From an uncultured Erysipelotrichaceae bacterium (GTDB lineage: Bacteria; Bacillota_I; Bacilli_A; RFN20; CAG-826), in contig CADCFC010000004.1 in NCBI GenBank assembly GCA_902800645.1, forward strand, positions 1 through 62,173: DNA of 62,173 nt, written 5' to 3'. The position numbers and the translations under genes are program-made. Shown piece after piece: positions 1 through 59,462 of the stretch. A model generated the notes under the pieces. That model was not told the origin of the DNA, did no database searches, and saw only the letters and a list, made by a program, of their open reading frames with translations. How positions within the stretch are numbered: position 1 is the first letter of the stretch; the number at the start of each line of letters is the position of its first letter.

Positions 1-115
1 AATTATAAGAGGTCTTTTCTTATCGATAATCCAAAATCTATCAAATTTAACGGGGTATTGTATTTTTTTCACCCCACGTTAGATTTTAGAGAACCTTAAG
101 CGCACCTTAGAAAAT

Positions 116-1618: not shown

Positions 1619-1623
1619 ATTAT

Positions 1624-4032
1624 ATGAACAGGACTAAAAAACTATTTCTTATTGTCCCATGTGCATTCATGGTGTTTTCTTGTTCATGTAATCAACAACC
1701 AACTGGACATGTTCACGTTTTTGAAGACACCATAGTGGACGCAACATGTGAAGATAGAGGATACACAAGTCATATATGTAAAGATTGTGGTTATGAATAT
1801 CACGATTCCTTTACTGAACCTTTAGGACATGATTTCTCTACATTTATTGAAGAAACAGGTAACTTAGAGGCTGATGAAGGTGAGATTATTCATGAATGTG
1901 TTAATTGTCATCAAAGACAAGCAACATCGACGTCACAAATCAACAACAAAGAAAAAGGTCTTCCTGCTTATCAATTAGGAAACCACAAAGTATCCACGAC
2001 TGGCTATGGCAGCTCAAGTGTTACTGTTTCTATTTCTAACTTTAATTCTTTAGACCAATTGGTGATCTATTACTCATTTAATCCAGACTATGGTCTATTC
2101 TATAACCAATCATTTAAGCTCACTTTATATAGTGACAAAACATATAGTATCTTTGGCTATAACAGTGGTGAATACACGATTGTAGCCTCAGATAAGATGC
2201 ATTATTCAGTTGATGTGAGCACTGATACAGCGAATATTCTCTTCATGTATTCTGATTACAATGTCAGCCAACAAGAAGCAGTTGAAAACTTCGCTACATA
2301 TGTCGCCTTATATGAAAAGAATGGTAATGTTTTTGAATATAGACAATTAAATCCATATGTTATTCCAACCTTTAGTGAGACCTGGTTAAAAGTTAATGGA
2401 CATAACAAATTCTATTATTCCACCAAATATCAAAATCATCATGTTGATAATTGGCAAAGACCAGACATCACTCAAGCAGATACAAACTGGACATATTGCT
2501 GTCGTTGTGAAACCCCTGAAGAAGCTATTGTTGGTATGCTTATTTATCAAGAAAATGGGGCCACAAATGTCGACGTTAACCTTTTGTATTTAAAACCTAT
2601 TTATCGTAATCTAACTGACTTAGAAAGAATTTTTAAATCAGTGAAAGATATTGGCACTATTGCTGTTTATTACAATAGCGATGTCTCTCAAGAAGAAAGG
2701 ATGGATATGCTAAGACTTGCTGTCCAAGCAGGAGCGGGTGGTGTCGATTTCCAAGGCTTTATGTTTCATACAGGTTCAACATTAGACACTCATACTGATG
2801 AGAATGTTCAATATTGGAAAAACCTTGGATATGACATGTCATTTATTAACGCATCTCCAAAAGAAACCACAATTGATCCTGATGAAGATGCTTTACAAAT
2901 GCAATTCATTCAAGAAATTCATCAAATGGGTGGCAAAGTACTTGGCTCGCAGCATACAAGTGCACAATTTACACGTAGACAAGCAGTAGCGTATGGTGAG
3001 TTCCTTAACCATAGAGGTTTAGACATCATCAAGATTGTTTCTCACGCTTATAATAGAGCAGCCTTACAAGATACCTTAATGGCTAATGTTGATGCCTATA
3101 ATAGCGATAAGATTACCGCTAAATATTCAATTCATACGAATAACTCTTCTATCTCCGATATTTCTAGAGTTATTGGTCCTCTTTTCTATCACACCTATAT
3201 GGCGTTCCATTATACAAACTTATGCCACTTAAAATTAGTGATGGATCTATTACACAATCCAGATATCGTTTTTGAAGATTCAATCACTCCTGATGAAGCG
3301 ATTAATCGTATTGTTCATAAGTCCAAGGATCCTGAACTTCAATATTTAATAGATCAATACGCTTATCTTACTAGTGACTCCTTCTATGCTTATGGAAGCG
3401 GAAGCAACATGTCTGATAGATGGTCTGTTAATGGCAATAACACTACCTTGAGAATGAGAGATAGTGAAGGCACTAATAGTTTCTCAATTAGAGGTGGAGC
3501 GTTTAAATCGGGATGGACTTCAAATAATTTTGAATTTGAAACTTCATTATCTGGTTTCTTTAAACCATATTCTTCAAGCGCCAGACTTCCTAAGTTTGGA
3601 ATCTTCATTGGTGATCAAGACCACATGCTTGCATTTACATATAATTTTGTTGCTTCTAGTGGAGTGGGAACTTCTTACTCCGTCGGAGTGAAAACAAACT
3701 CATATTATTTTGGTTATGACAAAAAGACCAAAGACGCTTTAGATACAACGGTTGTTGAAAATACATCGGTGTCTAGTAATGTCGCTAATGGTGATTCTAT
3801 GCGATTAAAGGTTAGATACGTTGAAGGTGTTATCTCCTTCTACTATTCATCTGCAGCAAGTGGTGATTATACATTGTTGACCACTCTTCAATATGATGAT
3901 TGCAAAGAGTTTTTCACCCATGATTCTGATAAAAACGTATATTCTGGCAATGTGGTCGAAGTTTATTTAGGCAGTGCATCTGTTGGTGTCGAGAATACTG
4001 TTGCCTTTGCAAACAAGATAACTCTCCTATAA
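1624..4032 (+). CDS. Lipoprotein with a Cys/His-rich module, a type I 3-dehydroquinase-like TIM barrel and a ConA/LamG-like C-terminal domain
   Basis: SD AAGGAG lies upstream and the lipobox is MVFSC. The Cys-rich module reads ATCEDRGYTSHICKDCGYEY...HECVNCH. The central region aligns by eye to AroD type I motifs (LGSQHTS; LDIIKIVS; ISRVIGPLF). The C-terminus looks like a beta-sandwich (PKFGIFIGDQDH). It is a paralog of the 17331-18491 product. Confidence 0.6.
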   Translation: MNRTKKLFLIVPCAFMVFSCSCNQQPTGHVHVFEDTIVDATCEDRGYTSHICKDCGYEYHDSFTEPLGHDFSTFIEETGNLEADEGEIIHECVNCHQRQATSTSQINNKEKGLPAYQLGNHKVSTTGYGSSSVTVSISNFNSLDQLVIYYSFNPDYGLFYNQSFKLTLYSDKTYSIFGYNSGEYTIVASDKMHYSVDVSTDTANILFMYSDYNVSQQEAVENFATYVALYEKNGNVFEYRQLNPYVIPTFSETWLKVNGHNKFYYSTKYQNHHVDNWQRPDITQADTNWTYCCRCETPEEAIVGMLIYQENGATNVDVNLLYLKPIYRNLTDLERIFKSVKDIGTIAVYYNSDVSQEERMDMLRLAVQAGAGGVDFQGFMFHTGSTLDTHTDENVQYWKNLGYDMSFINASPKETTIDPDEDALQMQFIQEIHQMGGKVLGSQHTSAQFTRRQAVAYGEFLNHRGLDIIKIVSHAYNRAALQDTLMANVDAYNSDKITAKYSIHTNNSSISDISRVIGPLFYHTYMAFHYTNLCHLKLVMDLLHNPDIVFEDSITPDEAINRIVHKSKDPELQYLIDQYAYLTSDSFYAYGSGSNMSDRWSVNGNNTTLRMRDSEGTNSFSIRGGAFKSGWTSNNFEFETSLSGFFKPYSSSARLPKFGIFIGDQDHMLAFTYNFVASSGVGTSYSVGVKTNSYYFGYDKKTKDALDTTVVENTSVSSNVANGDSMRLKVRYVEGVISFYYSSAASGDYTLLTTLQYDDCKEFFTHDSDKNVYSGNVVEVYLGSASVGVENTVAFANKITLL

Positions 4033-4203
4033 AAAATATTTTTCATTATCATTAATGTAGTTTATTATAAAACTAATAATACTTTTACTTAAAACAAAAT
4101 CCCTCTTTTCTCAGTGATGATAAGTAGGAATTGAGACAAGAGTTATAATTTAAATTATAATAGTCTTCTATGACTAGGGCTTGTCAAAGTTTAGGAGGTT
4201 TTT

Positions 4204-5970
4204 ATGCATAATAAAAAACTATTATTAGGAATCATATGTTCTGGTTTTTTGTGTATGGGCGCAGTTATGGCTGGCCAGCAACAAAAAGAATATCAGCCTG
4301 TTTATGCGACCACTCCGGATCGTATTATTGCGTCTGATCAAGACATGATTGATTTTGTTGATGCATGTAACGCTGGCACAAATTTTGAAGGACAACTGGT
4401 TAGATTGGATGCTGATGTATCAATTACCCTTACTAAGCAACCAACTAATGACACGACTAACAAGATTTATTCTGTTTTTGCGGGTGAGTTTGATGGCAAC
4501 AATCACACAATCACTTTGGATATAAATACATCAAATACTGCTACAGGTATTTGGAGAAATATCAATGGTAATGTTCATGATTTAAATCTTGAAGGAACAA
4601 TTACAAATAGTGGGACATATGCTTCTCCATTATGCTTATATAACAATGGAACAATTAGAAATGTTAGTTCATCCATTACTGCCAGTTTACCTACAGTTGA
4701 TTATGTTTCGGGTATTTTATTTAGAAACAATTCTGGCGGTAAAATCTATGATTGCGAGTTTTCTGGTAATATTACTGGAAAGAATTATGTTGGTGGTATT
4801 GTTTCCGACAATCAAAGATATATGACTAGCTGTGTAAATAATGGAACAGTATCTGGAACCTCATATGTTGGTGGAATTGCTGCAACTACAGATAAACCTG
4901 AGACATTAAACAATACAAGTTATCTCCATATTACCAATTGTGTAAACAATGGATCTGTTTCAAGCACAACTGGTGGTTATGCTGCCGGAATAGTTGGGTA
5001 CTATTCACGCGGAAGAGTTGATAACTGTATTAATAACGGAACTATCTCTAGTTCAGGGCAATTTGTTGGTGGCATTACCGCTGCAATGGGTACAACTAGT
5101 AGCGCAAAGGTACCGTATGATGATTTATCATTGCTTAATTGCAAAAACTATGGCGATGTTTCAACAACTAATAAGAGCATTGGTGGCATTTCAGGATTTG
5201 CTTATCCAAACACAAAAATTAAATATTGTGATAATTATGGTAGTGTTAGCGCTTCGTCTAGTTCTGGCGTAGGTGGTATTGTTGGTTATATTAATCAATC
5301 ATGCACTGCCGAAGGTGCCGAAACACTAATCGAAGCTTGCTATAATGGTGGACATATTACTGGTAAAACATATTCTGGTGGAATTTTAGGATATGTTGGA
5401 AATGGTGTTACCCCTATTGTTCAAATCAATAATTGTTTTTCAACAGGAGACGTAGAATCTCCTGCGGCCAGTGGTGCAATAAATTGTGGAACACTAGTTG
5501 GCAAAGGCAATACTGGTGAATTAGGCGTAAATGCAAATTCATTTGCAGTTGGAGAATTAATTGCAAATGCATCAACATCTAATAAGGGATATGGCGTTGG
5601 TTCAGGAACTGCTGCTTCATCTGCATCATCACTTGCTAATGGCGTTTCTAACAACTTTAAAGCAGTAATTAAATTCATTAGAGAATATACATGTTCTGAA
5701 GATAAGACAGCCTTTAGAACTGCATTTGAGAGCTTATCAAGCGCGGAGCTTGGCTATTTAGCGCAAGTAACTTACTACGATGAGCTAACTCAATATGAAC
5801 AAACTTATTTAAGCGCTGCTAACTATATTAATGGTTATACAAACTCTCAATCATTTATGGTGTTATTTAACAGCAACAATCAAAGCGGATTGGTAATCAT
5901 CATCTTAGCGATTGCATCAATCTCTATTATTGCTGGTATCATCATTATTAGAAAAAAGAAAGCAAGTTAA
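4204..5970 (+). CDS. GLUG-repeat surface protein with a C-terminal TM anchor
   Basis: SD AGGAGG and a signal peptide are present. A cap motif (FAGEFDGNNHTITLDI) is followed by about a dozen repeats of the type NCxNxGxVsG..YVGGIxG. The protein ends in a hydrophobic helix plus RKKKAS and has no LPXTG. Confidence 0.7.
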   Translation: MHNKKLLLGIICSGFLCMGAVMAGQQQKEYQPVYATTPDRIIASDQDMIDFVDACNAGTNFEGQLVRLDADVSITLTKQPTNDTTNKIYSVFAGEFDGNNHTITLDINTSNTATGIWRNINGNVHDLNLEGTITNSGTYASPLCLYNNGTIRNVSSSITASLPTVDYVSGILFRNNSGGKIYDCEFSGNITGKNYVGGIVSDNQRYMTSCVNNGTVSGTSYVGGIAATTDKPETLNNTSYLHITNCVNNGSVSSTTGGYAAGIVGYYSRGRVDNCINNGTISSSGQFVGGITAAMGTTSSAKVPYDDLSLLNCKNYGDVSTTNKSIGGISGFAYPNTKIKYCDNYGSVSASSSSGVGGIVGYINQSCTAEGAETLIEACYNGGHITGKTYSGGILGYVGNGVTPIVQINNCFSTGDVESPAASGAINCGTLVGKGNTGELGVNANSFAVGELIANASTSNKGYGVGSGTAASSASSLANGVSNNFKAVIKFIREYTCSEDKTAFRTAFESLSSAELGYLAQVTYYDELTQYEQTYLSAANYINGYTNSQSFMVLFNSNNQSGLVIIILAIASISIIAGIIIIRKKKAS

Positions 5971-5976
5971 ATATAT

Positions 5977-8900
5977 ATGAGACGAAATAGTGGATTTAAA
6001 GCTTTAACTATCGTTATTTCCACTATTTTTCTTTATTCTTGTTCATGCTCGTGTTCATATAATCAATTGAATCAAGCATCTCTTTCATTTACTCAAGAAT
6101 CATTAGTAATTAGTGTTAATCAAGAGTTAGATTTATTAAATATCATTGATTATAAGAATGTTGTTAATGGTGTGATATTTACTCTTGAAGACAATGATAA
6201 TGTTTTGTCTTTAACTGACACCACTATTAAGGGATTAAAAGTAGGTGAATGCACTGTTAAGGCTATATATCAAAGCTTAGTGGATACTTTAGAGGTATCT
6301 GTTGTTACTAACAAACCTCAAGTATCATATTTAGAAACTAACTATGAGTTTGATATCAGCAAAGGTGTCTTCCCAATCAAAGATAAAATCACTGTTAGTC
6401 CATTAACCGCTACTCTTGAATTAAGTTCAACTAGAACTGATTTCTCATTTAGTAATGGAAATATTACTTTTGGTGGCACTGGAAATTATTCATTCACTTT
6501 AAAAGCAAAGTATCAAGAAGCTTATAGTGCGAATTATAACTTCACAGTTTACGCTTATGATTACTTAAAGCTTGATGGAAGAGGAACGGTAGAAAATCCA
6601 TTTATTATCGCTACCGCTAGCGATTTAAAAGAATTAAGTGATGAAGTTCTTAACTATAAAGATTTAAAAGATAGATATTTCCTTCAAGCAGAAGATATCG
6701 ATATTAGTGAATATGACAATTGGACTCCAATTGGAACTTTTGGTGTTCCATTTGAAGGCATCTATAACGGAAACAATAAAAAGGTCACTGGATTAAACAT
6801 TAACACTCATGATTCATGGCAAGGTTTATTTGGATTCTCTAGTGGCACAATTAAGAATTTAACAGTTTATGGTGAGGTGAATGTCACTTGCCATCCTGAT
6901 TATGTTTATTCCCACTCATTCTGTGCAGGCATTTGTGGTGGATTATATAACAATGCGTTAGTGGATAACTGCACTAATTACGCTAATGTCCATGGCGACT
7001 CATATGTTGGCGGTATTGTTGGCGGTATTGCCCGTAGTGATGAGATGATTGTGGGAAGAGAACAATCCCAAATCGTCAACTGTAAAAACTATGGTGTAAT
7101 TTCTGGTGACGATACCTTTGCGATCAATGAAAGCGCGATGTATTTTGGTGGTATCGTTGGTGAGTCTCTTGGCATCTTAACCGGCAATGAAAATTATGGT
7201 GAAGTGAATGTCACTGGCACTAAGACAAAATACGTTGGTGGAGTGTGTGGACTTGGCTACATCATTTACAAATATGGAATGTATTTTGATGAGCCGATGG
7301 AGAACTACGCAAACAACGATAACATCAATCACGGAAAGGTCACAGGATACCATTCTGTAGGTGGTGTTTTTGGTGCAAATGTTCTTCCTTCTCACGGCTG
7401 TATTAACTATGGTGAAGTCAATGGTGATATCTGTGTTGGTGGTGTTTCTGGATTAAACGGAACCTCATCTGTTTTAGAGAACAATTATTCGATATCTTTA
7501 CTCGAAAATTGCGAAAATTATGGAAAAATACGTGCAAATCTACGTTATTCTGGCGGAATTACCTCATGTTCATACTTTGATGTTAATAGCTGTGTTAACT
7601 ATGGAGAAGTAACTGGTGGACCATCAGTTTATTACGTTGGTGGCGTTGTCGGATATCAAAGTAACGGAAACATTTTTAACTGTGAAAGTGATGAACTTGG
7701 AACTGTCACTGGCTATCATTCTGTAGGCGGTATTGTTGGTCATTCAAACACCAATTCTTTGTCCATTACTAGCTGTGTGAATCACTCCAAAGTTAGTTCA
7801 TTTAATGACGCTGATGATGAGTCAGTTCATATCGGTGGTATCGCTGGAATTTTAGGAACAAATAACACGATTAATGACTGCAATAACTATGGTGAAGTGA
7901 CTGGAAAAGGAACAAGAAACAGTCCATCTCGTTGGGGCGGTATCGGCGGTATTGCTGGTTCCATTTATAACAGTTCAAAAATCTTTAACTCAAAGAATTA
8001 TGGTGATGTAACTGGTAAGCAACAAGTCGGTGGAATTTTTGGTTATTCAAATGGCAATATTTTGACCGCTGTTCAAGATTGCCAAAACCAAGGAGATATT
8101 AAGTCTACTCATTCAGATCCACATCTAGGTGGTATCGCTGGAAGAATTAATGGAACAGCATTATTTAATTGTTTGAATAGTGGAAACTTAGTGGTTGAAA
8201 GTGGTGCTACTAATGTTGGTGATATATATGGTAGTGCGGCAAGCGCTACAAATAACGGAAATAAAGTAAGTGGAGATGGCTATAGTCCATATTTCTACCT
8301 CTTTAGTGGTGGAAAAGGATATGAAGACGATCCATTTATTATTAGGACCACAAAAGATTTTGAATTATTAAGAGAAAGAGTGTCCTCAACTGATGAGAAC
8401 GCTTCTCAAGAATATATCTATTACAAACTAGACGCTGATATTACTGTTACTGGTGGTTTATTGTCCACCAAAGAGTTTAAAGGTGTCTTTGATGGTAACA
8501 ATCACTGCATTACATTTAATTACAGTAACACCAGTAAAGATGAGGTTGCCTTGTTTGGTATTAATAGAGGCTTTATTAAAGATCTTGTGGTTGCTGGATC
8601 AATCACTGGTAGAAACTATTTAGCGTCTGTTGCAGTTACTAACTATGGCACAATTGAAAATTGTAAGAACCACGCAATAATTAGTGGTAACTCCCGTATT
8701 GGTGGCGTTGTTGTTACTAATAAAGGCGTTATCAATAACTGCCTTAATGAAGCAACTATTACTGGTTCATCGCAATACCTAGGTGGTATAGCTGGTGTTA
8801 ATGGTTCTGATTCAGAAGGTGGAACAATTATTAATTCAGTTAATGAAGGACCGGTTGAATGCACCGCTAGTACCTCTCAATATTCCTTTAATGGTAACTG

Positions 8901-9750: not shown

Positions 9751-11690
9751 AAAAGACCCCGTTAACATTATTAATGTTAAGTGCCTTAACCATTTCCTCT
9801 TTTGTTATTGGAATTTCTGCTAAAGAAAAACAAGTTAACGCCGCAATTTTAACATATACTGATTTGATCAAAGCTAAACCTGGAATGGTTAGTAATTCAT
9901 ATTTATATGAATCTGTGATGAATTATTCATTTGAACCAGGTTCGATTGGGTATTTTGATATCGCTGATTCAACAACAAAATCTATTACCTATGAATTTGG
10001 TTATGAAAATAACGGTATTGGTTCAGCATTATATTTAGACACTCCTGGTGGTGGATTTAACACCCGCATGAGATGTAGAACGTATTCCAACACTGATATT
10101 TCTTCTTCAGAAGGTGTGATGTTTTATATCGACTTCTCTTCTATTAAAGCTGAAGGAAGCAGTTACGTAGGTGTTGGATTAGGTCTTATGTTTATGGACT
10201 CATCAGTTGAACCTCCAAGTGGAAACAACATGTTTGATGAATCTCATAGATCTGGTCACTTTAGACATTACTATCCAGTTGAAACTAGAACTGCCTATTA
10301 TTATGACTTATTTGAAGGTAGGTTCATGCCTACCACAATTATTAATAATTGTGCAGTTGTTAAGGAAGGATACCAAGGATGGATTTATATTCCGTTTACT
10401 TCTTATGGATGGAACGGAAATTCTGATAGCAAATACGCAGTTAACACTGACGCATTTGATGAAGGATATAAGTGGCTTAACTATTCTCATTTCTTAACAA
10501 GCAACTTCAAGAGTGATGACACTCAATCAAGAATCTATTTTGATGAATTAACATTTATTAAGAGAACAACTCAAAACGTTGTTAACTATGAATATCAATC
10601 TGATCTAGCAGCGACATGTTTTGATGTTGGTGGAAAGATTTATAAAGATAGTAGTTCTAACAATTACAAACTCACTGATATTACGAATAAACTCACTCAT
10701 GACTATCAATATCTGAAGTTTAAAGATGGCGCGATTGGAGTGTGCTCTCACTGTAACGATTTAGTGTTTACAAGAGATGCAGAACATGTAGGAAGTGCCT
10801 TAAATGGTGATGTTTCTAACTATATTGACGTTCATTTCCACTATGGCAAGAGTTTAGAAAACGAAGAAGTTGTTATCGTTAATCTTGCTGAGTTTGTTTC
10901 TAAAGATAAAGAACCAAGAGTGAATCGAGTCACTATGGATGATTCTTGGGACTATGATTTCTCAGCGTGGTCTAGTGACACGAATGTTTACACTCCTAAA
11001 GATCCAAAAGTCACTTTACATATGAGCGAGACACATTACTTTGCAAAATATTTAATCTCATCATATGACAACGTTAAGTATTCACATGTTCCTAACTTGT
11101 TAGCATTACATGGTGGTAGATATAAATGCAATACTGGCAAGATTGTTATGAACGGTAACTCTAACTTCGCTTTAGCGTATAACACTACTAGTGACTATGC
11201 GAATCGTGGTTTACCACTTATTAATAACGCTGTAGCAGGTGGATCTTCATATGATTACTATTATTACGCTGATCAATTAGTGGTGGGCTATGCTCCTAAG
11301 ATTTTGTTATTTAACTTAACCACTAACGATCAAGCATATTGGAGTATGTCAGAAAAAGATATCATAGATATCACTAAGCAATATGTTGCTAGAGTACATG
11401 AAGCTTTACCTGATTGTATCTTTGCAGTTGTTAATGGTTCACCTCTTCCTGGAAGAAGTGAGATGTTCGCTACTGTTGAAAGAGTGAATAACCAAATGAA
11501 GAAATATGCTGAGACTGTAGATTATATCTACTTTATCGATACTTATGATTTCGTCTATGAAAGAATGATGGAATATCCGGATGGATGGGAATTCTGGACT
11601 CATATGGAAACTGATACCTTATCCACATGGATGAATTTAATCGCTGATGGAATAGATGAAATCGTTGCAGAAAGGGGGATTGTTTTCTAA
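9747..11690 (+). CDS. Secreted protein with an N-terminal beta-sandwich-like region, a Cys/His module and a C-terminal SGNH/GDSL-like domain
   Basis: SD GGAGG, an ATGA overlap and a signal peptide are present. The Cys/His module reads ATCFDVGGK...CSHCNDL. The C-terminal region has SGNH-like blocks (MNGNSNF; LTTNDQ), but the block V His is unclear. Confidence 0.5.
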   Translation: MKKTPLTLLMLSALTISSFVIGISAKEKQVNAAILTYTDLIKAKPGMVSNSYLYESVMNYSFEPGSIGYFDIADSTTKSITYEFGYENNGIGSALYLDTPGGGFNTRMRCRTYSNTDISSSEGVMFYIDFSSIKAEGSSYVGVGLGLMFMDSSVEPPSGNNMFDESHRSGHFRHYYPVETRTAYYYDLFEGRFMPTTIINNCAVVKEGYQGWIYIPFTSYGWNGNSDSKYAVNTDAFDEGYKWLNYSHFLTSNFKSDDTQSRIYFDELTFIKRTTQNVVNYEYQSDLAATCFDVGGKIYKDSSSNNYKLTDITNKLTHDYQYLKFKDGAIGVCSHCNDLVFTRDAEHVGSALNGDVSNYIDVHFHYGKSLENEEVVIVNLAEFVSKDKEPRVNRVTMDDSWDYDFSAWSSDTNVYTPKDPKVTLHMSETHYFAKYLISSYDNVKYSHVPNLLALHGGRYKCNTGKIVMNGNSNFALAYNTTSDYANRGLPLINNAVAGGSSYDYYYYADQLVVGYAPKILLFNLTTNDQAYWSMSEKDIIDITKQYVARVHEALPDCIFAVVNGSPLPGRSEMFATVERVNNQMKKYAETVDYIYFIDTYDFVYERMMEYPDGWEFWTHMETDTLSTWMNLIADGIDEIVAERGIVF

Positions 11691-13291
11691 TGAAAAAGAA
11701 ATTAGGACTATCATTATTCTCCCTTGTCTTATTAATAGGCTCTTTATCTTCTTGTGGACCAGAACCAAATTATATTTCAAATGTTGGTAAGAATTATTAT
11801 CGTGTTGAATTTAACACTAATGGTGGATCACCAGTTGAACCATTATTCACTAACATGATTGAAACTGAACCAGTTTCTTCTAAAGAAGGATATTCATTAC
11901 TTGGTTGGTACGTCACTAACGAGTTAGCGTTAATTGCTTTCCCATATACAGTTACTAGTAACGTAACTTTAAAAGCCTTATGGAATCAAAATAGATACAC
12001 AGTTCATTTTGAGGCCAATGGTGGTTCTCCAGTAGAAGATCTTATAAATGTTACTTCTATTGATTCTTGTAAAGAAACAATTAGAGATGGCTATACGTTT
12101 ACTGGATGGCATGTCTCTCAATCTTTAGATGATGACACAATTACATATCCATATGTTATTAAAAATAACATTACACTTTATGCTTCTTGGAGTAGAAACG
12201 AGATTGTTCCTAGCGGAGTAAATCTTGCTAACTCTAAAATTGATGCGATGGAAGCTAAATCATATTGGAGTTTTGAATATAAAGAGAACTCAATTCAATT
12301 TGATATTAACGTTACTGATCCATTCTTATATGGATTCAATGTGAATCCAGGATTAAATGATAATGTTGAAGTGGTTATTGGCACTAAACAAGCATCTAAT
12401 CCATCAGGACTTAATCTAAGCAATACTTATCACTTCTTAGTGGATATCAATGGATATGGTTACTATAACACTCCTATTAATGCCTATACTTGGAGTAGTG
12501 CGATGAATATCCCTGAGGGCGTCACTATTAGTACAGTTAAGGCAAATATTGAAGAACGTGGATTTAATGGCTATATGAGCTCGTTTGATATCCCATATTC
12601 GATGTTTGGATTATCAAGAGCACAGGCTATTAATAACTTAGTGATGACTGCAGGAATTAGAAACACTAATTCATATACCGCTAGTAACTGGGAAACTGCT
12701 ACCGGAAATAACTATTTGTCAAGTTGGACATATTACACCTTAAGTGAAGATGGACAATTTATCTTTAGTGATATTGATTCTGATACTGTCCTCATTGGTG
12801 GAAGTAACTACTCAATTGAAAACTTCTCTTCAATCAATAGTGTTCTTGCTCCACATAATGCATATTCATTCTCTGAAGAGATTACTTTAGAGAAATGGGA
12901 TAAAAAGATTGATGCGATTTTGAACTTCAACACTGATAAGCTCATCCTCAATTTAGGAAGATATGATTACTATGCGAATAAATTAAGTAGTGATGAAATC
13001 ATTGAAGGTATTGCGGGTATTGTAGAGAAGTGTTTAGCGAAATATTCTACAAATGCTATTTACGTTACCTCTATTGAGCCTCTTAAGAACTTCTCCACAA
13101 ATATTAATAGCTTTAAAAACATCAACGATTCATTAAAAGATAAGTGCAGTGAACTAGGTGTCAATTATATTGATACGCATTCACTCTTTATTAAAGATAA
13201 CAAGATTGACACTACTATGTTTAAGAACAATTTTGTGTTCTCAACTACAGGTATGGAAAAGTATTGGAATGTCATAGAGACATATTTATAA
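11690..13291 (+). CDS. Lipoprotein with two Listeria-Bacteroides (Flg_new) repeats, a sugar-binding-like middle domain and a C-terminal SGNH-like domain
   Basis: The gene has a TAATG overlap with its upstream neighbour and the lipobox LSSC. Two repeats read Y.V.F..NGGSPVE...GY.F.GW....L. The C-terminal region has LIGGSNYS and YIDTHSLF motifs. Confidence 0.55.
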   Translation: MKKKLGLSLFSLVLLIGSLSSCGPEPNYISNVGKNYYRVEFNTNGGSPVEPLFTNMIETEPVSSKEGYSLLGWYVTNELALIAFPYTVTSNVTLKALWNQNRYTVHFEANGGSPVEDLINVTSIDSCKETIRDGYTFTGWHVSQSLDDDTITYPYVIKNNITLYASWSRNEIVPSGVNLANSKIDAMEAKSYWSFEYKENSIQFDINVTDPFLYGFNVNPGLNDNVEVVIGTKQASNPSGLNLSNTYHFLVDINGYGYYNTPINAYTWSSAMNIPEGVTISTVKANIEERGFNGYMSSFDIPYSMFGLSRAQAINNLVMTAGIRNTNSYTASNWETATGNNYLSSWTYYTLSEDGQFIFSDIDSDTVLIGGSNYSIENFSSINSVLAPHNAYSFSEEITLEKWDKKIDAILNFNTDKLILNLGRYDYYANKLSSDEIIEGIAGIVEKCLAKYSTNAIYVTSIEPLKNFSTNINSFKNINDSLKDKCSELGVNYIDTHSLFIKDNKIDTTMFKNNFVFSTTGMEKYWNVIETYL

Positions 13292-13330
13292 ACATAAGGT
13301 ACAATAAAGGTACAGAAACGGAGAATAGTA

Positions 13331-13702
13331 ATGAAATTTTACAGATGTAAACATTGTGGCAAGATTATTGCTGTTGTTAATGGCGTCAAAGTTCCAACAA
13401 TTTGTTGTGGTGAAGTAATGGAAGAATTAGTTCCAGGCACAAGTGATGGTGCAGTGGAAAAACACGTTCCAGTTGTGGAAGTTAACGGAAACGTCGCTCG
13501 TGTTAAGGTTGGAGAAGTTGAACACCCAATGATGGACGCTCACTACATTGAGTGGATCATGATTGAAACCAATTTTGGCAATCAAAGAAAAGTATTAAAG
13601 CCAGGACAAAAACCAGAAGCAGAATTTGCTCTACTTCCAGGCGAAGAAGTTGTTAGAGCGCTTGAATACTGCAACTTACACGGATTATTTGCATCCAAGT
13701 AA
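13331..13702 (+). CDS. dfx: Desulfoferrodoxin (superoxide reductase, 2Fe-SOR type)
   Basis: 123-aa product. The N-terminus has a desulforedoxin-like CxxC...CC motif (YRCKHCGKIIAV...PTICCGEVM). The SOR centre II motifs EKHVP, H..EWI and C.LHGL are present. Confidence 0.9.
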   Translation: MKFYRCKHCGKIIAVVNGVKVPTICCGEVMEELVPGTSDGAVEKHVPVVEVNGNVARVKVGEVEHPMMDAHYIEWIMIETNFGNQRKVLKPGQKPEAEFALLPGEEVVRALEYCNLHGLFASK

Positions 13703-13725
13703 ATATTTAGAATAAAGAAAAATGA

Positions 13726-13754
13726 CTCTGCATTAAAAGCAGAGCTTTTCTTTT
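13726..13754. terminator. Intrinsic terminator between convergent genes
   Basis: Stem CTCTGC/GCAGAG with a 7-nt loop, followed by CTTTTCTTTT. Confidence 0.55.
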
Positions 13755-13767
13755 AGAAAATATATTA

Positions 13768-15336
13768 CTATTTATTGTTTATGTTGTTATATACTTTGCC
13801 TTCTCCGACAGTGTCGTAACCAACTATATATCCATACATCTCTATAGAGATATCATCATCAATAATATATTGACCATTGTTAACACATCCAATAATTGTG
13901 GCTTGATTGTAACCAACAATTCCACCTAATGAAACAGTGCCAAAAGTTGCAATGGATTCAAAGTCTCCATTATTTACACAATTCAATACGTATCCACCTG
14001 TTGCTTGTGCGAATCCAACAATTCCGCCTATACGATATTTACCTTTAACAAGGTTGCTATTATCACAATCCTTAATAGTGGAGTTATAGTTACTTCCTGC
14101 AATACCACCAACACCGCCATTAGTTGATCCTAATCCATGGACATACCCTTCATTAGAACAACTCTGGACAGTTAGGTTACTACCAAGCATTCCAACAATT
14201 CCACCAACCCAATATGAAATATTGGAAGTGTTACCATTAATTTCACCATTATTAACACAGTTAGTGATATTAGATCTACAGTATCCAACAATACCTGCTA
14301 CTCCAACTCCACCTGAAATTTTGCCTTGGTTTCTAGAGTTATTAACAGTAGTGGAGTTTCTAGCATTGCCAACAATACCACCGATGTTTTCACTACCAGT
14401 GATATCACCAGTATTAACACAATCAGTGATATATGTGTTGAAGTTATTACCAATGATACCTCCGGTACCACCTAATGCTTTTCCTGATCCAATTACATCT
14501 CCATGGTTCTCACAATGTGAGATAGTAGCACCACTACCACAGACACCGATAATTCCACCTAAGCCAGAATAGTTTTCAACTAAATAATCTTTAGCGGATA
14601 TTGTTCCAAAGTTTTTACAGTTAGTAAGAGATCCAATTTTATTGGATGAAACCATGTTATATCCGATGATACCACCAATACAGTTGGTGCCAGTAACTGT
14701 ACCACCTAAATATGAACATAATTCAAGATTTCCACCAGCGTTACATCCAATAAATCCACCGACGTATTTGCCAACTACGTTTACATTACCTGATGAGGTA
14801 CAGCTAGATATGTTTCCGTAATTGATTCCAACGAATAGACCAAAGGCTATTCCGTTAGTGATGCCTCCAGAAAGGAAGACATTATTAATGTTCAATCCTC
14901 TGATTGTGCCAGAATTGGAGTTGAAGAATCCTTTTCTTTCAGCGGTAACGTTCATTGAGATGTTTTTGATCGTGCGGTTATTACCATTAAACGTTCCTTT
15001 AAATGAACCACCGGAAGTTCCAGTGCCGATTCCTAGCCAATCAATGTTATTCAAATCGATGTTTACATTTAGTGTTACGAACTTATTGAGATAATAGCTT
15101 TTTGCACTAAGAGAACTACGGAAATAAGCGAGTTCTTTCGCGTTATTAATTTGATATGGGTTATTTTGAGTGCCATCACCATACTCAAAAGTAGAAGCGA
15201 CAGTGCCATCCCAAACATCATATTCTTCTGGTTCTTTATAAACCTCATGTTTTGAGGTGCTTTGAGGCATATCAAAGGATGCACAACTAGTGAGAAGCAA
15301 CGCTAATAATGATGCAACAATAAATCTATGTTTCAT
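13768..15336 (-). CDS. GLUG-repeat lipoprotein
   Basis: The lipobox is LLTSC. The cap motif is NPYQINNAKELAYF...FKGTFNGNNRTIKNISM, followed by repeats of the type NCxNxGxIsG...IGGIVG. Confidence 0.7.
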   Translation of the reverse strand: MKHRFIVASLLALLLTSCASFDMPQSTSKHEVYKEPEEYDVWDGTVASTFEYGDGTQNNPYQINNAKELAYFRSSLSAKSYYLNKFVTLNVNIDLNNIDWLGIGTGTSGGSFKGTFNGNNRTIKNISMNVTAERKGFFNSNSGTIRGLNINNVFLSGGITNGIAFGLFVGINYGNISSCTSSGNVNVVGKYVGGFIGCNAGGNLELCSYLGGTVTGTNCIGGIIGYNMVSSNKIGSLTNCKNFGTISAKDYLVENYSGLGGIIGVCGSGATISHCENHGDVIGSGKALGGTGGIIGNNFNTYITDCVNTGDITGSENIGGIVGNARNSTTVNNSRNQGKISGGVGVAGIVGYCRSNITNCVNNGEINGNTSNISYWVGGIVGMLGSNLTVQSCSNEGYVHGLGSTNGGVGGIAGSNYNSTIKDCDNSNLVKGKYRIGGIVGFAQATGGYVLNCVNNGDFESIATFGTVSLGGIVGYNQATIIGCVNNGQYIIDDDISIEMYGYIVGYDTVGEGKVYNNINNK

Positions 15337-15339
15337 ACC

Positions 15340-17331
15340 TTACTCCATTACGTAATCCTTTGCGGTAATAGCCACGTTAAATGTGTTTAGTCCAAAGTAG
15401 GCTTTGGATAAACCAAAGTTGGTGACGTTTTGTAATGTTCTTACTTCTGATTCACCAAAAGAAAATGTGTATAGATCTTCATTTCTATCAATACCTAACT
15501 TGATATAGTTACCATATTGGTAAGCGACGGGGGAACCCACACTATAATTGAATGAAACGTAGTCGGAGAATACTCCTCCAGTTACTAAGCAATATCCTAA
15601 ATCAACACCTTCCATTGAAGATCCGTTTCCGGCAGCGTCTACATAGTAGAAGATTCCATTAAACTCATCATCAACTAGTATGATTCCAAACTTTGGATAT
15701 AAATCAAAATTAATTACGCTATTAGCGGTGATACTAGCGGAGAACGATAGCTTGTTGCTGTTATTTTTATATGCATACAAAGTATTTAATGCATTGCCAC
15801 TAGTAATAGTGACGTTTGGATTATCTCCTGTATCATTTGATAAATCCCAGCCTTCAGTCATTCTTAAGTTAGAAACATTTCCAAAGAAGTTACTATTCAT
15901 AACATAGTTATTTTCATCGAGATTGTTATTTGCAATAGATGGATATGTTTTAATGTTTGATGTTTCAGTGTTCAATTCTCTACTATATGTAGGTTTGTCA
16001 TTGATGATGTTGCCAAATGAAACATATATCTTTCCTGTTTCTTTAGGAAGCTTAAGTGACATTTGATATCGATTGTCTTTAACTAGTTCCACACTTTGTT
16101 CAAAGTTTGGATGTTGAGTGGTTTCCACTAGCTTTTGTTGCGATGATGAATATACATAATACGAGACTGAATTATCAACGTATAGATTAACCATCTTAAG
16201 ATTGTTAATATCAACGCTTTCATCATCACTTGCTTCAACATATTTGATGGATATTCCATCATTAATGGAGATATTGCTATTAGTGGATTTAACTGTGACG
16301 TTTTGATTATCAAAAGCGAATTCTGATTTATTGGTTTCACCATCTTTTATAGATTCAACAGCAAAACTGTTAGTTAATGTCTTTTCTTGTCCTTTGTCTT
16401 TGATTTCAAAGGCTACTTTTTCATTAACTTCATTAAATGAAAGATACGCTTTTCCAAATAGATTGCCTAATTTGATTTCCCCTTTTGCGTCGAAGTGTTT
16501 ACGGTCCATATTATCGTCATTACGAGATATATCCGCATTAATTGTATCGATATAGTAATTCCTAGAATCGCTATCCATGATTTCTTTCTTAGCGGAGTTG
16601 ATATCTCTATAAGAGAGGTGATAGTAAGAAGAAACACCTGAATCTAAGAACATCATTCCATTTTTAGGAGCATATTCTTGGTATCTAACTTTGATATCGT
16701 TAACGAAGTTTTCTAAATACTCTTTGTAGTTATACTCTCCGTTTTTAGCATCGCTTTCACCTTGGACAAACATAAAGACAGAAACATCAAAATCAATATT
16801 GCTATTTTTAAGTTTTAGGAGCTGCTCTTCAAAGAAGGTGTTCATTTTTTGATAATAGACACCATGATCGATATTCCATTGATATTTGAAGTTAGATTCT
16901 CCACCTCCTGCAAACTTGATGATGTAGAAGGTTTCATCTTGTTTGAAGTTTGATAATACTTCTGCTATACCTACTTCAGGACCTAAACATCCATATTTAA
17001 TACCTTCATTAGGAGCTTTACCTTGTCCTAATCTAGTCTTAATGAATGATGTTTGTTCTTTATGAACAAGCTTAGTGGTTAACATGTTACGGTATGAGAT
17101 TTTTACGTTATCGTATCCGTTTGTGTATTCTTTGAATTTTTGATCGCTCACACCTTCAAATTCGGTTAAGTGATATGAGTATGAAAAACCTAAGCAGTCT
17201 TCATCTCCTGCTAAAAGAATTACATGACTCTTGTTGTCCTTTACCGGTTCATCATAAATAACTCTTGGTGAAGGAGGTTCATTACAAGAGACTAATAATG
17301 GTAGAACAAGTAAAAGTAATGGTTTTTTCAT
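15340..17331 (-). CDS. Lipoprotein with an N-terminal SASA (sialate O-acetylesterase-like, SGNH) domain and a C-terminal ConA-like domain
   Basis: The lipobox is LLVSC. SASA-type motifs FVQGESDA and DRKHFDAKGEIKLG are present, but block I reads LLAGDEDCLGF instead of GQSN. The C-terminal PKFGIILVDDEF module resembles the C-terminus of the 1624-4032 product. Confidence 0.55.
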   Translation of the reverse strand: MKKPLLLLVLPLLVSCNEPPSPRVIYDEPVKDNKSHVILLAGDEDCLGFSYSYHLTEFEGVSDQKFKEYTNGYDNVKISYRNMLTTKLVHKEQTSFIKTRLGQGKAPNEGIKYGCLGPEVGIAEVLSNFKQDETFYIIKFAGGGESNFKYQWNIDHGVYYQKMNTFFEEQLLKLKNSNIDFDVSVFMFVQGESDAKNGEYNYKEYLENFVNDIKVRYQEYAPKNGMMFLDSGVSSYYHLSYRDINSAKKEIMDSDSRNYYIDTINADISRNDDNMDRKHFDAKGEIKLGNLFGKAYLSFNEVNEKVAFEIKDKGQEKTLTNSFAVESIKDGETNKSEFAFDNQNVTVKSTNSNISINDGISIKYVEASDDESVDINNLKMVNLYVDNSVSYYVYSSSQQKLVETTQHPNFEQSVELVKDNRYQMSLKLPKETGKIYVSFGNIINDKPTYSRELNTETSNIKTYPSIANNNLDENNYVMNSNFFGNVSNLRMTEGWDLSNDTGDNPNVTITSGNALNTLYAYKNNSNKLSFSASITANSVINFDLYPKFGIILVDDEFNGIFYYVDAAGNGSSMEGVDLGYCLVTGGVFSDYVSFNYSVGSPVAYQYGNYIKLGIDRNEDLYTFSFGESEVRTLQNVTNFGLSKAYFGLNTFNVAITAKDYVME

Positions 17332-18491
17332 TAGTTGTTACCTGATAACTCCGGTGAATTTAAGATTGCAACCATAGTTGCTAGATCAATTTGAATGTTA
17401 GTTTCATCATTAGTGTATTCATCAACACAGAAAGCGATATAACTTCCAAACATTGGGCACATTAACCTTGATAGGGTTGATTGTCCATGGACTGAGAATT
17501 TAATACCTAATTCTTGTTCAAGGATGATACAAGATTTTAAGTGATCAATAACGGTGTCTTTAGAAGAGCCTGATAAAACGAGTTTTGCTACATCAGCACC
17601 TATGTATTCAATAAATTTAGCAGCTGCAACTGTTTGTTCGGTTGTTAAAGCAACACCAACGTGAGCAGAATATAATACTTCCGCTCCTAATTGATGAATA
17701 TCTTCTATAAACGCTCTTTGAGAAGCGATAACTGTTTTATTAAGTGAGATTTCTTTTGCGTTAGCGTCAACGAATGAAACATCAATTCCATCAGCGACGT
17801 ATTCTGCTTTTAATTCTTTATTTTCGGTCGGGATGCTGTTGTAGTTGTTATACAAATACCCAGGCATGTCAACTGCACATGCGCCTGCTTGAACTGAAAG
17901 TTTTAATAGATTTGCTGTTTCTTCAGGACTTAGTTGAGTGGTAGTTCCGGCGAATGTTCCATTATATGCAATTGCAAGAACTGGTAAATTAGTGCAGTAC
18001 ATGATTCTTTCTAAATCATCAACGTTTCTATAGATTGGATCAAGAGCACTAATATAGACCATAAATCCGGTAGCGCCATGAGCTTCTGATTTTCTGATTT
18101 TGATAATCGCATCATCAGGATTATTCTCAATAATCATTGAGACCGCCATAACTTTGTGATCAGTAAATACTGGCTTTTCTCTCATGTGGTCAATGACGAC
18201 TTCTGTACTAATTTCTTGTTCTACGAAATCGTAGCCAAGTTTTCCACAGACATCACAAATGTGATATACAACTCCGTCATCTCCACCAATCGTGAAGTCG
18301 CTATAGTGGTGGTCGGTTTTAGGTGTGAAATTGTCTCGATAAATATAACCATCGTTTCTGATGTGTTCGGTGTATCCTTCACTAATGCATGTTGCAGCGA
18401 CAATTTTCACTTCAACATCAAAAGTTTTCACTTGAGAACAAGAAAACAATGAAATAGCTACCAAAGGTAACGAAAGCATTTTATTCTTCAT
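17331..18491 (-). CDS. Lipoprotein with a Cys/His module and a type I 3-dehydroquinase-like TIM barrel
   Basis: I trimmed the start to ATG 18491, which has GAGGTG 7 nt upstream; the ORF track began at GTG 18500. The lipobox is SLFSC. The Cys/His module reads ATCISEGYTEH...YHICDVCGK. AroD-like motifs are YSAHVG, GADVAKLVLSGSSKDTV and TLSRLMCPMFGSYIAF. Confidence 0.6.
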   Translation of the reverse strand: MKNKMLSLPLVAISLFSCSQVKTFDVEVKIVAATCISEGYTEHIRNDGYIYRDNFTPKTDHHYSDFTIGGDDGVVYHICDVCGKLGYDFVEQEISTEVVIDHMREKPVFTDHKVMAVSMIIENNPDDAIIKIRKSEAHGATGFMVYISALDPIYRNVDDLERIMYCTNLPVLAIAYNGTFAGTTTQLSPEETANLLKLSVQAGACAVDMPGYLYNNYNSIPTENKELKAEYVADGIDVSFVDANAKEISLNKTVIASQRAFIEDIHQLGAEVLYSAHVGVALTTEQTVAAAKFIEYIGADVAKLVLSGSSKDTVIDHLKSCIILEQELGIKFSVHGQSTLSRLMCPMFGSYIAFCVDEYTNDETNIQIDLATMVAILNSPELSGNN

Positions 18492-18608
18492 AAGACACAC
18501 CTCACGATAAAATAATTATAAATAATATATATTTTATGTTGTACATAAATTTGTCTTTTGTTGTTTTTGAATGAATAAATAATTAATGGATATAACGACA
18601 AATATTTT

Positions 18609-42122: not shown

Positions 42123-42123
42123 T

Positions 42124-43431: not shown

Positions 43432-43432
43432 G

Positions 43433-45819: not shown

Positions 45820-45821
45820 AT

Positions 45822-58157: not shown

Positions 58158-58171
58158 AAGGAGGCATTTAT

Positions 58172-59263: not shown

Positions 59264-59320
59264 TTAACTCATATTTATATATAGCGAAGACGTCTAGATA
59301 TAGGCGTTTTCTTTTATTTG

Positions 59321-59349
59321 TTGAGATATTATTTACAATAACGTATACT
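59321..59349 (+). promoter_or_regulatory. Candidate promoter TTGAGA-17 nt-TATACT
   Basis: Near-consensus hexamers lie about 110 nt upstream of ATG 59463, which has its own SD (GGAAAGGAAA). Confidence 0.45.
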
Positions 59350-59462
59350 TTTATTGTTAATAACATGATAGGAAAATGTTTTGTTAATATCTTGATTTAA
59401 CGGGATTTTTTCGACATTTTTTTACGTGTTTAGCCTATATAGTTAGGCGGAAAGGAAATTTT

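Follow-up and report, generated by a model that had tools for sequence, protein, structure and literature searches.

Two convergent surface-protein cassettes with dehydroquinase-fold lipoproteins in an uncultured Erysipelotrichaceae bacterium, a probable glycan-processing locus

Contig CADCFC010000004.1 of an uncultured Erysipelotrichaceae bacterium, analysed here over a stretch of 62,173 nucleotides (nt) that we call the window, carries two convergent sets of genes for exported proteins, each encoding a lipoprotein of the type I dehydroquinase (DHQase) fold together with GLUG-repeat surface proteins and proteins of the SGNH or SASA esterase folds. Listing and translating the open reading frames (ORFs) of the window and reading the gene junctions verified the eight genes of the initial annotation, including their positions and their abutting or overlapping ends:

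1624-4032, plus strand: P1, 802 amino acids (aa), DHQase-like lipoprotein
4204-5970, plus strand: P2, 588 aa, secreted GLUG-repeat protein with a C-terminal membrane anchor
5977-9750, plus strand: P3, 1257 aa, GLUG lipoprotein
9747-11690, plus strand: P4, 647 aa, secreted SGNH protein
11690-13291, plus strand: P5, 533 aa, lipoprotein with two Flg_new repeats and a degenerate SGNH-like domain
13768-15336, minus strand: P6, 522 aa, GLUG beta-helix lipoprotein
15340-17331, minus strand: P7, 663 aa, SASA-fold lipoprotein
17331-18491/18500, minus strand: P8, about 386 aa, DHQase-fold lipoprotein

P3 and P4 overlap as ATGA, the P4/P5 and P8/P7 junctions read TAATG, and the remaining gaps amount to 3 nt (P7/P6), 6 nt (P2/P3) and 171 nt (P1/P2). 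The ATG at 18491 is likely to be a better start for P8 than position 18500, because a Shine-Dalgarno-like GAGG sequence precedes it. Genetic code 4, as used by Mollicutes, was ruled out, since P3 ends at the TGA of its ATGA overlap and the long ORFs are clean in table 11. The claim that all eight products carry Sec or lipoprotein signals was likewise borne out: a PROSITE-type lipobox was found in six of them (P1, P3, P5, P6, P7 and P8), and P2 and P4, which lack a lipobox, begin with a hydrophobic, signal-like segment. The anchor of P2 is a hydrophobic segment at its C-terminus.

Regarding the two DHQase-like lipoproteins, the assignment made from the sequence alone withstood both profile and structure searches. 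P8 scored 29.9 bits against Pfam DHquinase_I (cutoff 22.2), its AlphaFold2 (AF2) model (predicted local distance difference test, pLDDT, 87.6) retrieved only type I DHQases among the top 50 Foldseek matches in the PDB (E~1e-13, template modelling (TM) scores of 0.7-0.8), and the P8 family profile likewise matched type I dehydroquinases only. P1 has no Pfam match, yet BLASTP shows it to be a paralogue of P8 (E=1e-35, 33% identity across 245 residues), and both have an N-terminal Cys/His module in common. The parts of the two proteins are as follows:

18225-18419, minus strand: Cys/His beta module of P8, with C38, H64, C82 and C85 invariant
17334-18179, minus strand: DHQase-fold TIM barrel of P8 (Pfam, AF2, Foldseek)
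17661-17663, minus strand: H280 of P8, aligned to the AroD His (PDB profile alignment)
17583-17585, minus strand: K306 of P8, aligned likewise to the AroD Lys
17466-17468, minus strand: R345 of P8, aligned likewise to the AroD Arg
1735-1914, plus strand: Cys/His module of P1 (aa 38-97), with an extra CxxC
2491-3258, plus strand: DHQase-like TIM barrel of P1 (aa ~290-545), with H444, K470 and R515
3391-4029, plus strand: C-terminal module of P1 with a PKFGI motif

Pfam scans of the middle and C-terminus of P1 gave no significant family, and the beta domain between its Cys/His module and its barrel belongs to none that is recognised. Lys170 and His143 (Salmonella numbering) are the Schiff-base lysine and general-base histidine of AroD; the pairs K306/H280 of P8 and K470/H444 of P1 align to the Schiff-base Lys and catalytic His of At DHQ-SDH. 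Across 15 aligned DHQase-like sequences His280, Lys306 and Ser344-Arg345 (P8 numbering) do not vary, and the same His/Lys/Arg columns are also invariant in P1, in cytoplasmic relatives (about 280 aa, about 33% identical to P8, DHquinase_I 59.7 bits) and in giant-fusion relatives, across identities of 28% to 76%. The Arg213-type carboxylate clamp and the Phe/Ser motif are kept as well. Glu46, Arg48 and Arg82 of AroD bind the hydroxyls of dehydroquinate; here the E-x-R-x-D motif is replaced by M-V-Y in P8 and D-V-N in P1, and the Arg82 position is Asn in both. As these equivalents are not kept and the score against the NCBIfam aroD model TIGR01093 falls far below the cutoff (21.5 against 139.3 bits), P8 and P1 are probably active Schiff-base enzymes that do not belong to the dehydroquinases (AroD) proper. 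No aro genes were found near either of them among the scanned window ORFs. The name 'type I 3-dehydroquinate dehydratase' that NCBI gives to an exported P8-type lipoprotein (P0218, MBQ8407175.1) is probably a misannotation and could mislead metabolic reconstructions of metagenome-assembled genomes (MAGs).

The family is small: an exhaustive profile search of 1.84 billion representative proteins returned 92 representatives at E≤1e-30, with two P8-type clusters, about 12 P1-type clusters (50% identity), about 50 of cytoplasmic forms and several giant secreted proteins. The Cys/His module (C...H...CxxC) of P1, P4 and P8 also recurs elsewhere: many giant proteins of the representative library (P0094-P0207) contain it in 6-18 tandem copies. 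Pfam gave no significant family for it, and PF23674 appeared below threshold in one related protein only.

The esterase-fold proteins P7, P4 and P5 differ in the state of their catalytic residues. P7 scored 42.3 bits against Pfam SASA (PF03629, cutoff 24.8), and in its AF2 model (pLDDT 72.7) the N-terminal domain matched 1zmb, SIAE (8f9o), NanS (3pt5) and CE20 in Foldseek, and the C-terminal domain matched galectin, CBM66 and ConA-like structures. P4 lies just below the cutoff of Lipase_GDSL_2 (31.8 against 32.9 bits), and P5 scored 68.9 bits against Flg_new and 20.9 bits against Lipase_GDSL_2, below the same cutoff. Their domains are arranged as follows:

16432-17235, minus strand: SASA-fold domain of P7, with block I G-D-E-D-C, not GQSN, and an invariant Cys46
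between the SASA-fold and C-terminal domains, minus strand: beta-sandwich domain of P7
15343-15834, minus strand: ConA/galectin/CBM66-like C-terminal domain of P7, with a PKFGI motif
10608-10766, plus strand: Cys/His module of P4
11124-11687, plus strand: C-terminal SGNH esterase domain of P4
11792-12199, plus strand: two Flg_new repeats of P5
12767-13288, plus strand: degenerate SGNH-like domain of P5, with Ser372 kept

P7 keeps the QGESD motif of block III, and the serine of block I is replaced (G-x-x-[ND]-C) in all 14 triads of P8-, P7- and P6-type genes, described below, where the P7-type gene could be read; some P7 orthologues also lack the block V His and the Asp. Since the GQSN serine is replaced in all readable triads, P7 is not a plausible serine esterase and is better understood either as a binding protein derived from an esterase or as an enzyme of altered chemistry. 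A table of block I motifs from 85 SASA-domain matches in the fetched loci separates the two kinds cleanly: all P8-linked SASA-like proteins read G[GED][EDG][ND]C, and the remaining matches with an aligned block I, GLUG-fused ones included, all have the canonical GQSN, so that loss of the serine correlates perfectly with an exported P8-type gene next door. P4 is the only one of the three that looks like an active esterase, its SGNH blocks (G-N-S472-N, G498/G499, TxN527D with N527-D528, and E615...H619) being invariant in 10 homologues. All three P5 orthologues (P5 aligned with those of L087 and L088) have lost the Asn of block III and the His of block V. The de-esterifying role that had been proposed for these proteins is plausible for P4, which looks catalytically intact, and is not supported for P7 and P5.

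Pfam scans of the middle and C-terminus of P7, the N-terminus of P4 and the middle of P5 gave no significant family; the N-terminal domain of P4 and the domain of P5 between its Flg_new repeats and its SGNH-like domain are therefore left without a recognised family. PDB sequence searches with P4 alone and with the P7 family profile returned nothing useful. The PKFGI tails of P1 and P7 are marginally similar in BLASTP (E=0.01), and an hhalign comparison of the two families did not establish homology of the tails, giving a single weak match (probability 34%) between the middle beta domains. Canonical SASA esterase genes also occur as tandem arrays of two to three paralogues in several gut Clostridia MAGs (L043-L060, e.g. 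L060 1716-4887).

The GLUG proteins P2, P3 and P6 are mutually homologous, P2 matching P3 and P6 at 1e-15 to 1e-28. Against Pfam Glug (PF07581, cutoff 20.5) P6 (59.8 bits) and P3 (21.6 bits) lie above the cutoff and P2 (16.8 bits) below it. The P6-family profile matched PDB entry 3n6z, a structural-genomics 'putative IgA1 protease', at E=7.9e-17; a PDB sequence search with P6 alone gave nothing useful. P3 comprises two GLUG beta-helix regions behind a weak Big_2-like N-terminus, and the tails of P2 and P3 are without a significant family in Pfam scans. Among the domain calls of the initial annotation, the DHQase fold, SASA, GLUG and Flg_new were therefore supported by hidden Markov models (and, for P8 and P7, by AF2 and Foldseek), and Big_2 in P3 stayed below threshold at 14.7 bits. 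A role of the GLUG proteins as polysaccharide lyases was also considered and found no support from any lyase or Beta_helix family match in Pfam.

We then asked how far the minus triad, P8-P7-P6, is conserved. A P8-family scan of one genome per GTDB species yielded 29 loci, all from MAGs, in which genes were called as crude six-frame ORFs scored with phmmer. Close homologues of P8 (at least 49% identity) occur in rumen and gut Erysipelotrichaceae and other Bacilli, in Christensenellaceae and in other Clostridia, all with an adjacent P7-like gene and a P6-like GLUG gene wherever the contig allows. The triad of a DHQase-like, a Ser-less SASA-like and a GLUG protein was found in 14 distinct loci of gut and rumen MAGs of Bacilli and Clostridia, the window included (window, L001-L008, L030/L032, L089, L090, L096, L104 and L105), and P6-like genes adjoin in all of them. 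Bacilli have the order DHQ-SASA-GLUG-GLUG and Clostridia the order GLUG-DHQ-SASA, so that the association has persisted through rearrangement. Among loci that are not phylogenetically independent, an adjacent GLUG gene accompanies 14 of the 15 distinct P8-type loci (window counted) and none of the 19 loci of cytoplasmic relatives (Fisher p=1.1e-8). Together with the occurrence in two classes and the domain fusions described below, this neighbourhood analysis supports the initial proposal that the three families form a real functional unit and are not adjacent by chance. In L104 (5830-8991) two ORFs (866 + 187 aa) make up the GLUG gene that lies upstream of the P8 orthologue, owing either to a frameshift or to an assembly error.

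The plus cassette has a different core. P2-P3-P4-P5 (GLUG-GLUG-SGNH-SGNH) is kept as a four-gene unit in L087, L088, L090 and L094, with P2 orthologues at the same position in all four and P3 orthologues in L087, L088 and L094, at up to E=0. Apart from the window, only L094 and L029 (there as a fusion) have a P1-type gene alongside P2-P5, and such a gene is missing from three of the five other loci with P4-type genes. P1 is hence an optional addition to the plus cassette, and the statement that the same triad occurs twice holds for the window, with a core elsewhere of GLUG-GLUG-SGNH-SGNH. The two cassettes are nevertheless linked despite rearrangement: in L090 they are adjacent and divergent with an AraC gene between them, and in the window they are convergent. 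Furthermore, an 85-residue remnant of a P6 C-terminus (4e-37) lies between the P5 orthologue and the MATE gene of L088 (13557-13811, minus strand), which suggests that the minus cassette was deleted in that genome.

The related loci place the two cassettes in a wider system, from which the initial annotation had left out the MATE gene, the desulfoferrodoxin gene, the terminator, the AraC regulator, the oxidoreductase/EamA module, the PF12831 flavoprotein and the GH43, GH88 and BNR_2 partners. In almost every locus, exported and cytoplasmic alike, the DHQase-like gene has beside it a regulator of one AraC-family subfamily (about 255-290 aa), which also flanks SASA-GLUG pairs without a DHQase-like gene; in the closest relatives (L001, L002 and L090) the AraC gene stands directly upstream of the P8 orthologue. 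The cytoplasmic relatives of P8 lie in AraC-flanked operons kept in MAGs of Clostridia, Lentisphaerota and Verrucomicrobiota (L009-L028, e.g. L022 9033-15867), which encode two Zn-dependent dehydrogenases, one of them of the PIG3 quinone/enone-reductase family (above the NCBIfam cutoff), and in addition a Gfo/Idh/MocA dehydrogenase, an NmrA-like epimerase, a short-chain dehydrogenase/reductase (SDR), an amidohydrolase/deacetylase-family protein and an EamA transporter. This looks like a catabolic pathway of anaerobes, so far undescribed, for a sugar, sugar acid or cyclitol. Moreover, the Gfo/Idh/MocA-EamA-PIG3 module stands directly beside surface genes for SASA proteins with the serine and GLUG proteins in L026, L039, L041, L042, L052, L079 and L080, and partly in L056 and L095. 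In the collections searched, the system is confined to uncultured gut and rumen Bacillota, apart from a few Lentisphaerota and Verrucomicrobiota genomes with the cytoplasmic part only.

SASA and GLUG domains share one polypeptide in L026, L056, L062, L064, L079, L080 and L095, and Pfam scans of giant secreted relatives and of L029 and L101 gave the following fusion partners of the exported DHQase-like domain:

L029 and P0086: GDSL, GH88/105 and Flg_new (and Glug)
P0110, P0116 and P0118: BNR_2 and F5/8 type C, no esterase-fold domain detected
P0122: BNR_2 and GDSL
P0127: BNR_2 and canonical SASA
L101: GDSL and GH43

The partner found most often is an SGNH/SASA-fold domain; the one that varies is either a glycosidase-type domain or a GLUG protein. 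Glycosidase-type neighbours of the related loci are frequently GH43, with GH2, GH127, CBM35 and BNR_2 also occurring. The fusion partners all serve to degrade complex glycans of plant (pectic or hemicellulosic) or host origin.

The window holds further genes around and between the two cassettes:

116-1618, plus strand: MATE-family transporter gene (Pfam MatE, 95 bits)
13331-13702: desulfoferrodoxin gene between the two convergent operons
13725-13745: bidirectional terminator-like hairpin (terminator scan hits on both strands and reading of the sequence)
18626-19720, plus strand: cytoplasmic PF12831 FAD-dependent oxidoreductase (FAD_oxidored, 177.6 bits), divergent from P8

The desulfoferrodoxin gene and then the hairpin separate the plus set from the minus set. 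The plus transcription unit probably begins with MATE, as the stop codon of this gene lies only 5 nt ahead of the start of P1. A MATE/MatE gene also adjoins the triad in L007/L089 (Clostridia) and the P6 remnant in L088, a neighbourhood that may reflect a functional link to the exporter. Homologues of the PF12831 flavoprotein adjoin DHQase-like genes in L026, L091, L095 and L105, in L095 with a start that overlaps the DHQase-like gene, and we regard the flavoprotein as a probable accessory component; a role as an extracellular sugar oxidase was rejected, as it is without a signal peptide. Farther along, 55128-62003 (plus strand) holds three large ORFs of 1009 aa (no Pfam match), 363 aa and 846 aa (Big_2 domain); no phmmer similarity to the eight proteins was found for them, and they may represent a further set of surface proteins. 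At 39795-47915 (plus strand) two xanthine-dehydrogenase-family molybdopterin enzymes flank two amidohydrolases, in what looks like a purine or heterocycle degradation cluster unrelated to the surface cassettes.

Taking genes, export signals, folds, catalytic-residue status, conservation, co-occurrence and fusions together, we favour, at somewhat better than an even chance, the explanation that the region comprises two surface gene cassettes of an inducible glycan-processing (foraging) system with a new Schiff-base enzyme. Catalysis, complex formation, class of substrate and order of steps would then be as follows. The GLUG, ConA-like and dead-esterase modules would hold an acylated plant (pectic or hemicellulosic) or host glycan at the surface, where P7, nucleophile-less and with a lectin-like ConA/CBM66 domain, probably binds the substrate rather than hydrolysing it, and P4 would strip acyl groups from the held glycan. 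P8 would act as a class I aldolase-type enzyme of the DHQase fold, with its Lys/His pair and Arg carboxylate clamp intact; through the lysine, the DHQase-like enzymes would form a Schiff base with a sugar unit bearing a carbonyl and a carboxylate, leading to beta-elimination or retro-aldol cleavage. The products would be imported and, where the cytoplasmic module exists, handled by the cytoplasmic DHQase-like paralogue together with the Gfo/Idh/MocA dehydrogenase, the PIG3-type enone reductase, a zinc-dependent alcohol dehydrogenase, the SDR, the amidohydrolase and the EamA transporter.

Our best guess for the sugar unit is a 2-keto-3-deoxy sugar acid (Kdo/Dha, sialic acid or 5-keto-4-deoxyuronate). 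Type I DHQase removes a beta-hydroxyl next to the alpha-CH2 of a ketone via its Lys Schiff base, and the 2-keto-3-deoxy acids that arise as free products of sialidase-like and GH88/105 enzymes share this local arrangement and also bear a carboxylate. It is on account of this match that we prefer these acids, though as a tentative choice that is rather more apt to fail than to hold. It is not the whole story, given the GH43 fusions and the biosynthetic context of one locus (L103, see below): GH43 is the most frequent glycosidase among fusion partners and neighbours and releases no keto acids, so that the guess is not general, and the fusions of DHQase-like, GDSL and GH43 domains weakened a purely ulosonic-acid explanation. 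A wider proposal, which we consider possible and still doubtful, is that exported DHQase-fold proteins make up a new class of carbohydrate-active enzymes that was recruited from a cytoplasmic catabolic paralogue, would use a Lys Schiff base at the surface as lyase or dehydratase on 2-keto-3-deoxy sugar acids (Kdo, Dha, sialic acids, 5-keto-4-deoxyuronate) or to remove a keto-acid substituent, and would work in a dedicated three-protein module with the Ser-less SASA 'lectin' and GLUG beta-helices.

Besides the reach of the substrate guess, several observations weigh against the foraging explanation as a whole. All homologues come from MAGs, and the loci compared are not independent. Neither an AraC regulator homologue nor a glycoside hydrolase, a sugar ABC transporter or the cytoplasmic module was found among the scanned ORFs of the 62 kb window, and P7 and P5 are catalytically degenerate, which would also suit a non-enzymatic surface role. 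The proteins might thus form a surface coat or adhesin cluster in which GLUG adhesins and esterase-like and DHQase-like pseudoenzymes bind plant particles or host mucus. The serine lost from P7 in all triads, with the block V His also gone in some orthologues, the missing block V His and block III Asn of P5, the abundance of adhesin-type repeats (Flg_new, weak Big_2 and ConA-like modules), the lack of a glycoside hydrolase in the window and the nature of the closest GLUG relative of solved structure, an uncharacterised fragment named 'putative IgA1 protease', are all consistent with it. Against it, the DHQase-like His/Lys/Arg are invariant down to 28% identity and in the cytoplasmic paralogues of enzyme operons, the SGNH catalytic blocks of P4 are invariant too, and the domains are fused to bona fide glycosidase domains and have AraC and catabolic neighbours; we therefore consider a mere coat improbable. 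We judge it about equally improbable that the cassettes tailor the cell's own envelope, with a MOP/MATE-type transporter exporting a precursor, SGNH-fold proteins acting as O-acyl transferases or esterases on the cell's own glycopolymer and the DHQase-like lipoprotein modifying a keto or pyruvyl substituent. Extracytoplasmic SGNH O-acetyltransferases of the OatA/PatB type are known, MATE abuts P1 in the window and recurs beside the cassette in L007/L089 and L088, and L103, the exception among the P8-type loci, encodes a lipoprotein of 57% identity without a GLUG or SASA neighbour inside an operon (1-13159) for polysaccharide or teichoic-acid-like biosynthesis (Polysacc_synt flippase, Acyl_transf_3, Glyphos_transf, PS_pyruv_trans, phosphonate-like genes, UDP-glucose dehydrogenase and epimerase). 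Yet in the regions examined, 13 of the 14 other P8-type loci are without genes for a glycosyltransferase, a polymerase or a flippase, most have the AraC regulator and several have glycosidase-type neighbours, the fusions are with degradative GH43, GH88 and BNR_2 domains, and the MATE protein of the window stays under the Polysacc_synt cutoff (23.5 against 28.2).

The initial annotation had suggested Schiff-base processing of substrates such as quinate esters. The fold and the Lys/His residues are real; that quinate esters (e.g. chlorogenic acids) are hydrolysed at the surface and then undergo true dehydroquinase chemistry is very unlikely, because the binding residues equivalent to Glu46, Arg48 and Arg82 of AroD are missing and the enzyme is exported away from the NAD-dependent quinate dehydrogenase that would make 3-dehydroquinate. 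In its favour are the herbivore-gut habitat and the retained Arg213-type clamp and Phe/Ser motif, and the dehydrogenases, the PIG3-type enone reductase and a carboxylate-type DMT transporter that accompany the cytoplasmic relatives would suit reductive quinate or shikimate metabolism, but the partner P7 is not an esterase, the aroD score lies far under its cutoff, and the consistent fusions are with glycosidases and not with tannase or feruloyl-esterase families. As for the adjacency having no functional basis at all, gut Bacillota have many GLUG, Flg_new and SGNH genes, and three P1-type loci (L091-L093) have no GLUG and SGNH neighbours, a further point against the foraging explanation; this is nonetheless hardly credible in view of the GLUG adjacency at P8-type and not at cytoplasmic-type loci, the perfect correlation of SASA serine loss with an exported DHQase-like gene and the translational coupling, and the co-occurrence and fusion data effectively refute it.

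If the foraging explanation is true, it has consequences beyond this genome. Glycan breakdown in the gut is currently viewed as the work of hydrolases, lyases, esterases and a few oxidative enzymes, to which our finding suggests a further component, an exported DHQase-fold Schiff-base enzyme; this would extend the glycan-degradation toolkit of the gut by a new principle of catalysis and probably also by a new family of enzymes. It would also account for genes of rumen and gut MAGs that are annotated as 'type I 3-dehydroquinate dehydratase' or hypothetical, give GLUG-repeat proteins a first functional context and provide an example of an esterase turned binding protein.

Compared with known systems, each component resembles a described family and departs from it. 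P8 and P1 share with AroD the TIM-barrel fold and an aligned, invariant Schiff-base Lys, general-base His and Arg213-type clamp, but they are exported lipoproteins with an added Cys/His module (P1 also with a lectin-like tail), have the Glu46/Arg48/Arg82 equivalents replaced, fall far below the aroD equivalog cutoff and stand in no shikimate-pathway context, their closest relatives being cytoplasmic enzymes in AraC-controlled oxidoreductase operons. P7 has the N-terminal fold and the block III QGESD of sialate O-acetylesterases (NanS, SIAE and CE20-type), whereas GQSN has become G-x-x-[ND]-C in every DHQase-linked orthologue, with His and Asp also lost in some, and a beta-sandwich and a ConA/CBM66-like domain are added. 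The GLUG proteins recall the N-terminal regions of IgA1 proteases and Zmp proteins (3n6z) in their motifs and in the P6-family profile match, yet they have no M26 protease domain and are stand-alone lipoproteins or fused to SASA domains.

At the level of whole systems, the giant proteins P0127 and P0122, which combine BNR_2, SASA or GDSL and a Lys-Schiff-base TIM barrel, follow a logic parallel to sialic acid harvesting by NanH, NanS and NanA, namely a glycosidase, a de-O-acetylase and a class I aldolase-type enzyme. The Schiff-base enzyme here is, however, extracellular and of the DHQase fold, not of the NAL/DHDPS fold; GH43 and GH88/105 are equally frequent partners; BNR_2 occurs only in relatives elsewhere; and no sialidase, NanA-type lyase, NanK/NanE or sialic acid transporter was found among the scanned window ORFs. 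In its overall arrangement the system resembles Gram-positive polysaccharide utilisation loci and multimodular surface carbohydrate-active enzymes, in that related loci have an AraC regulator, surface lipoproteins, esterases, lectin-like modules and glycosidase neighbours (GH43, GH2, GH127) with an ABC or EamA transporter. They differ from the present core, which has no recognised glycoside hydrolase, lyase or ABC transporter, and from the window, which has no regulator, glycoside hydrolase or sugar transporter. We know of no carbohydrate-active enzyme family that contains a DHQase-fold enzyme, and full-text literature searches gave no description of this system, in agreement with the initial statement that no described system couples these families. 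Set beside the systems above, the region is probably a surface glycan-processing locus containing a new enzyme family.

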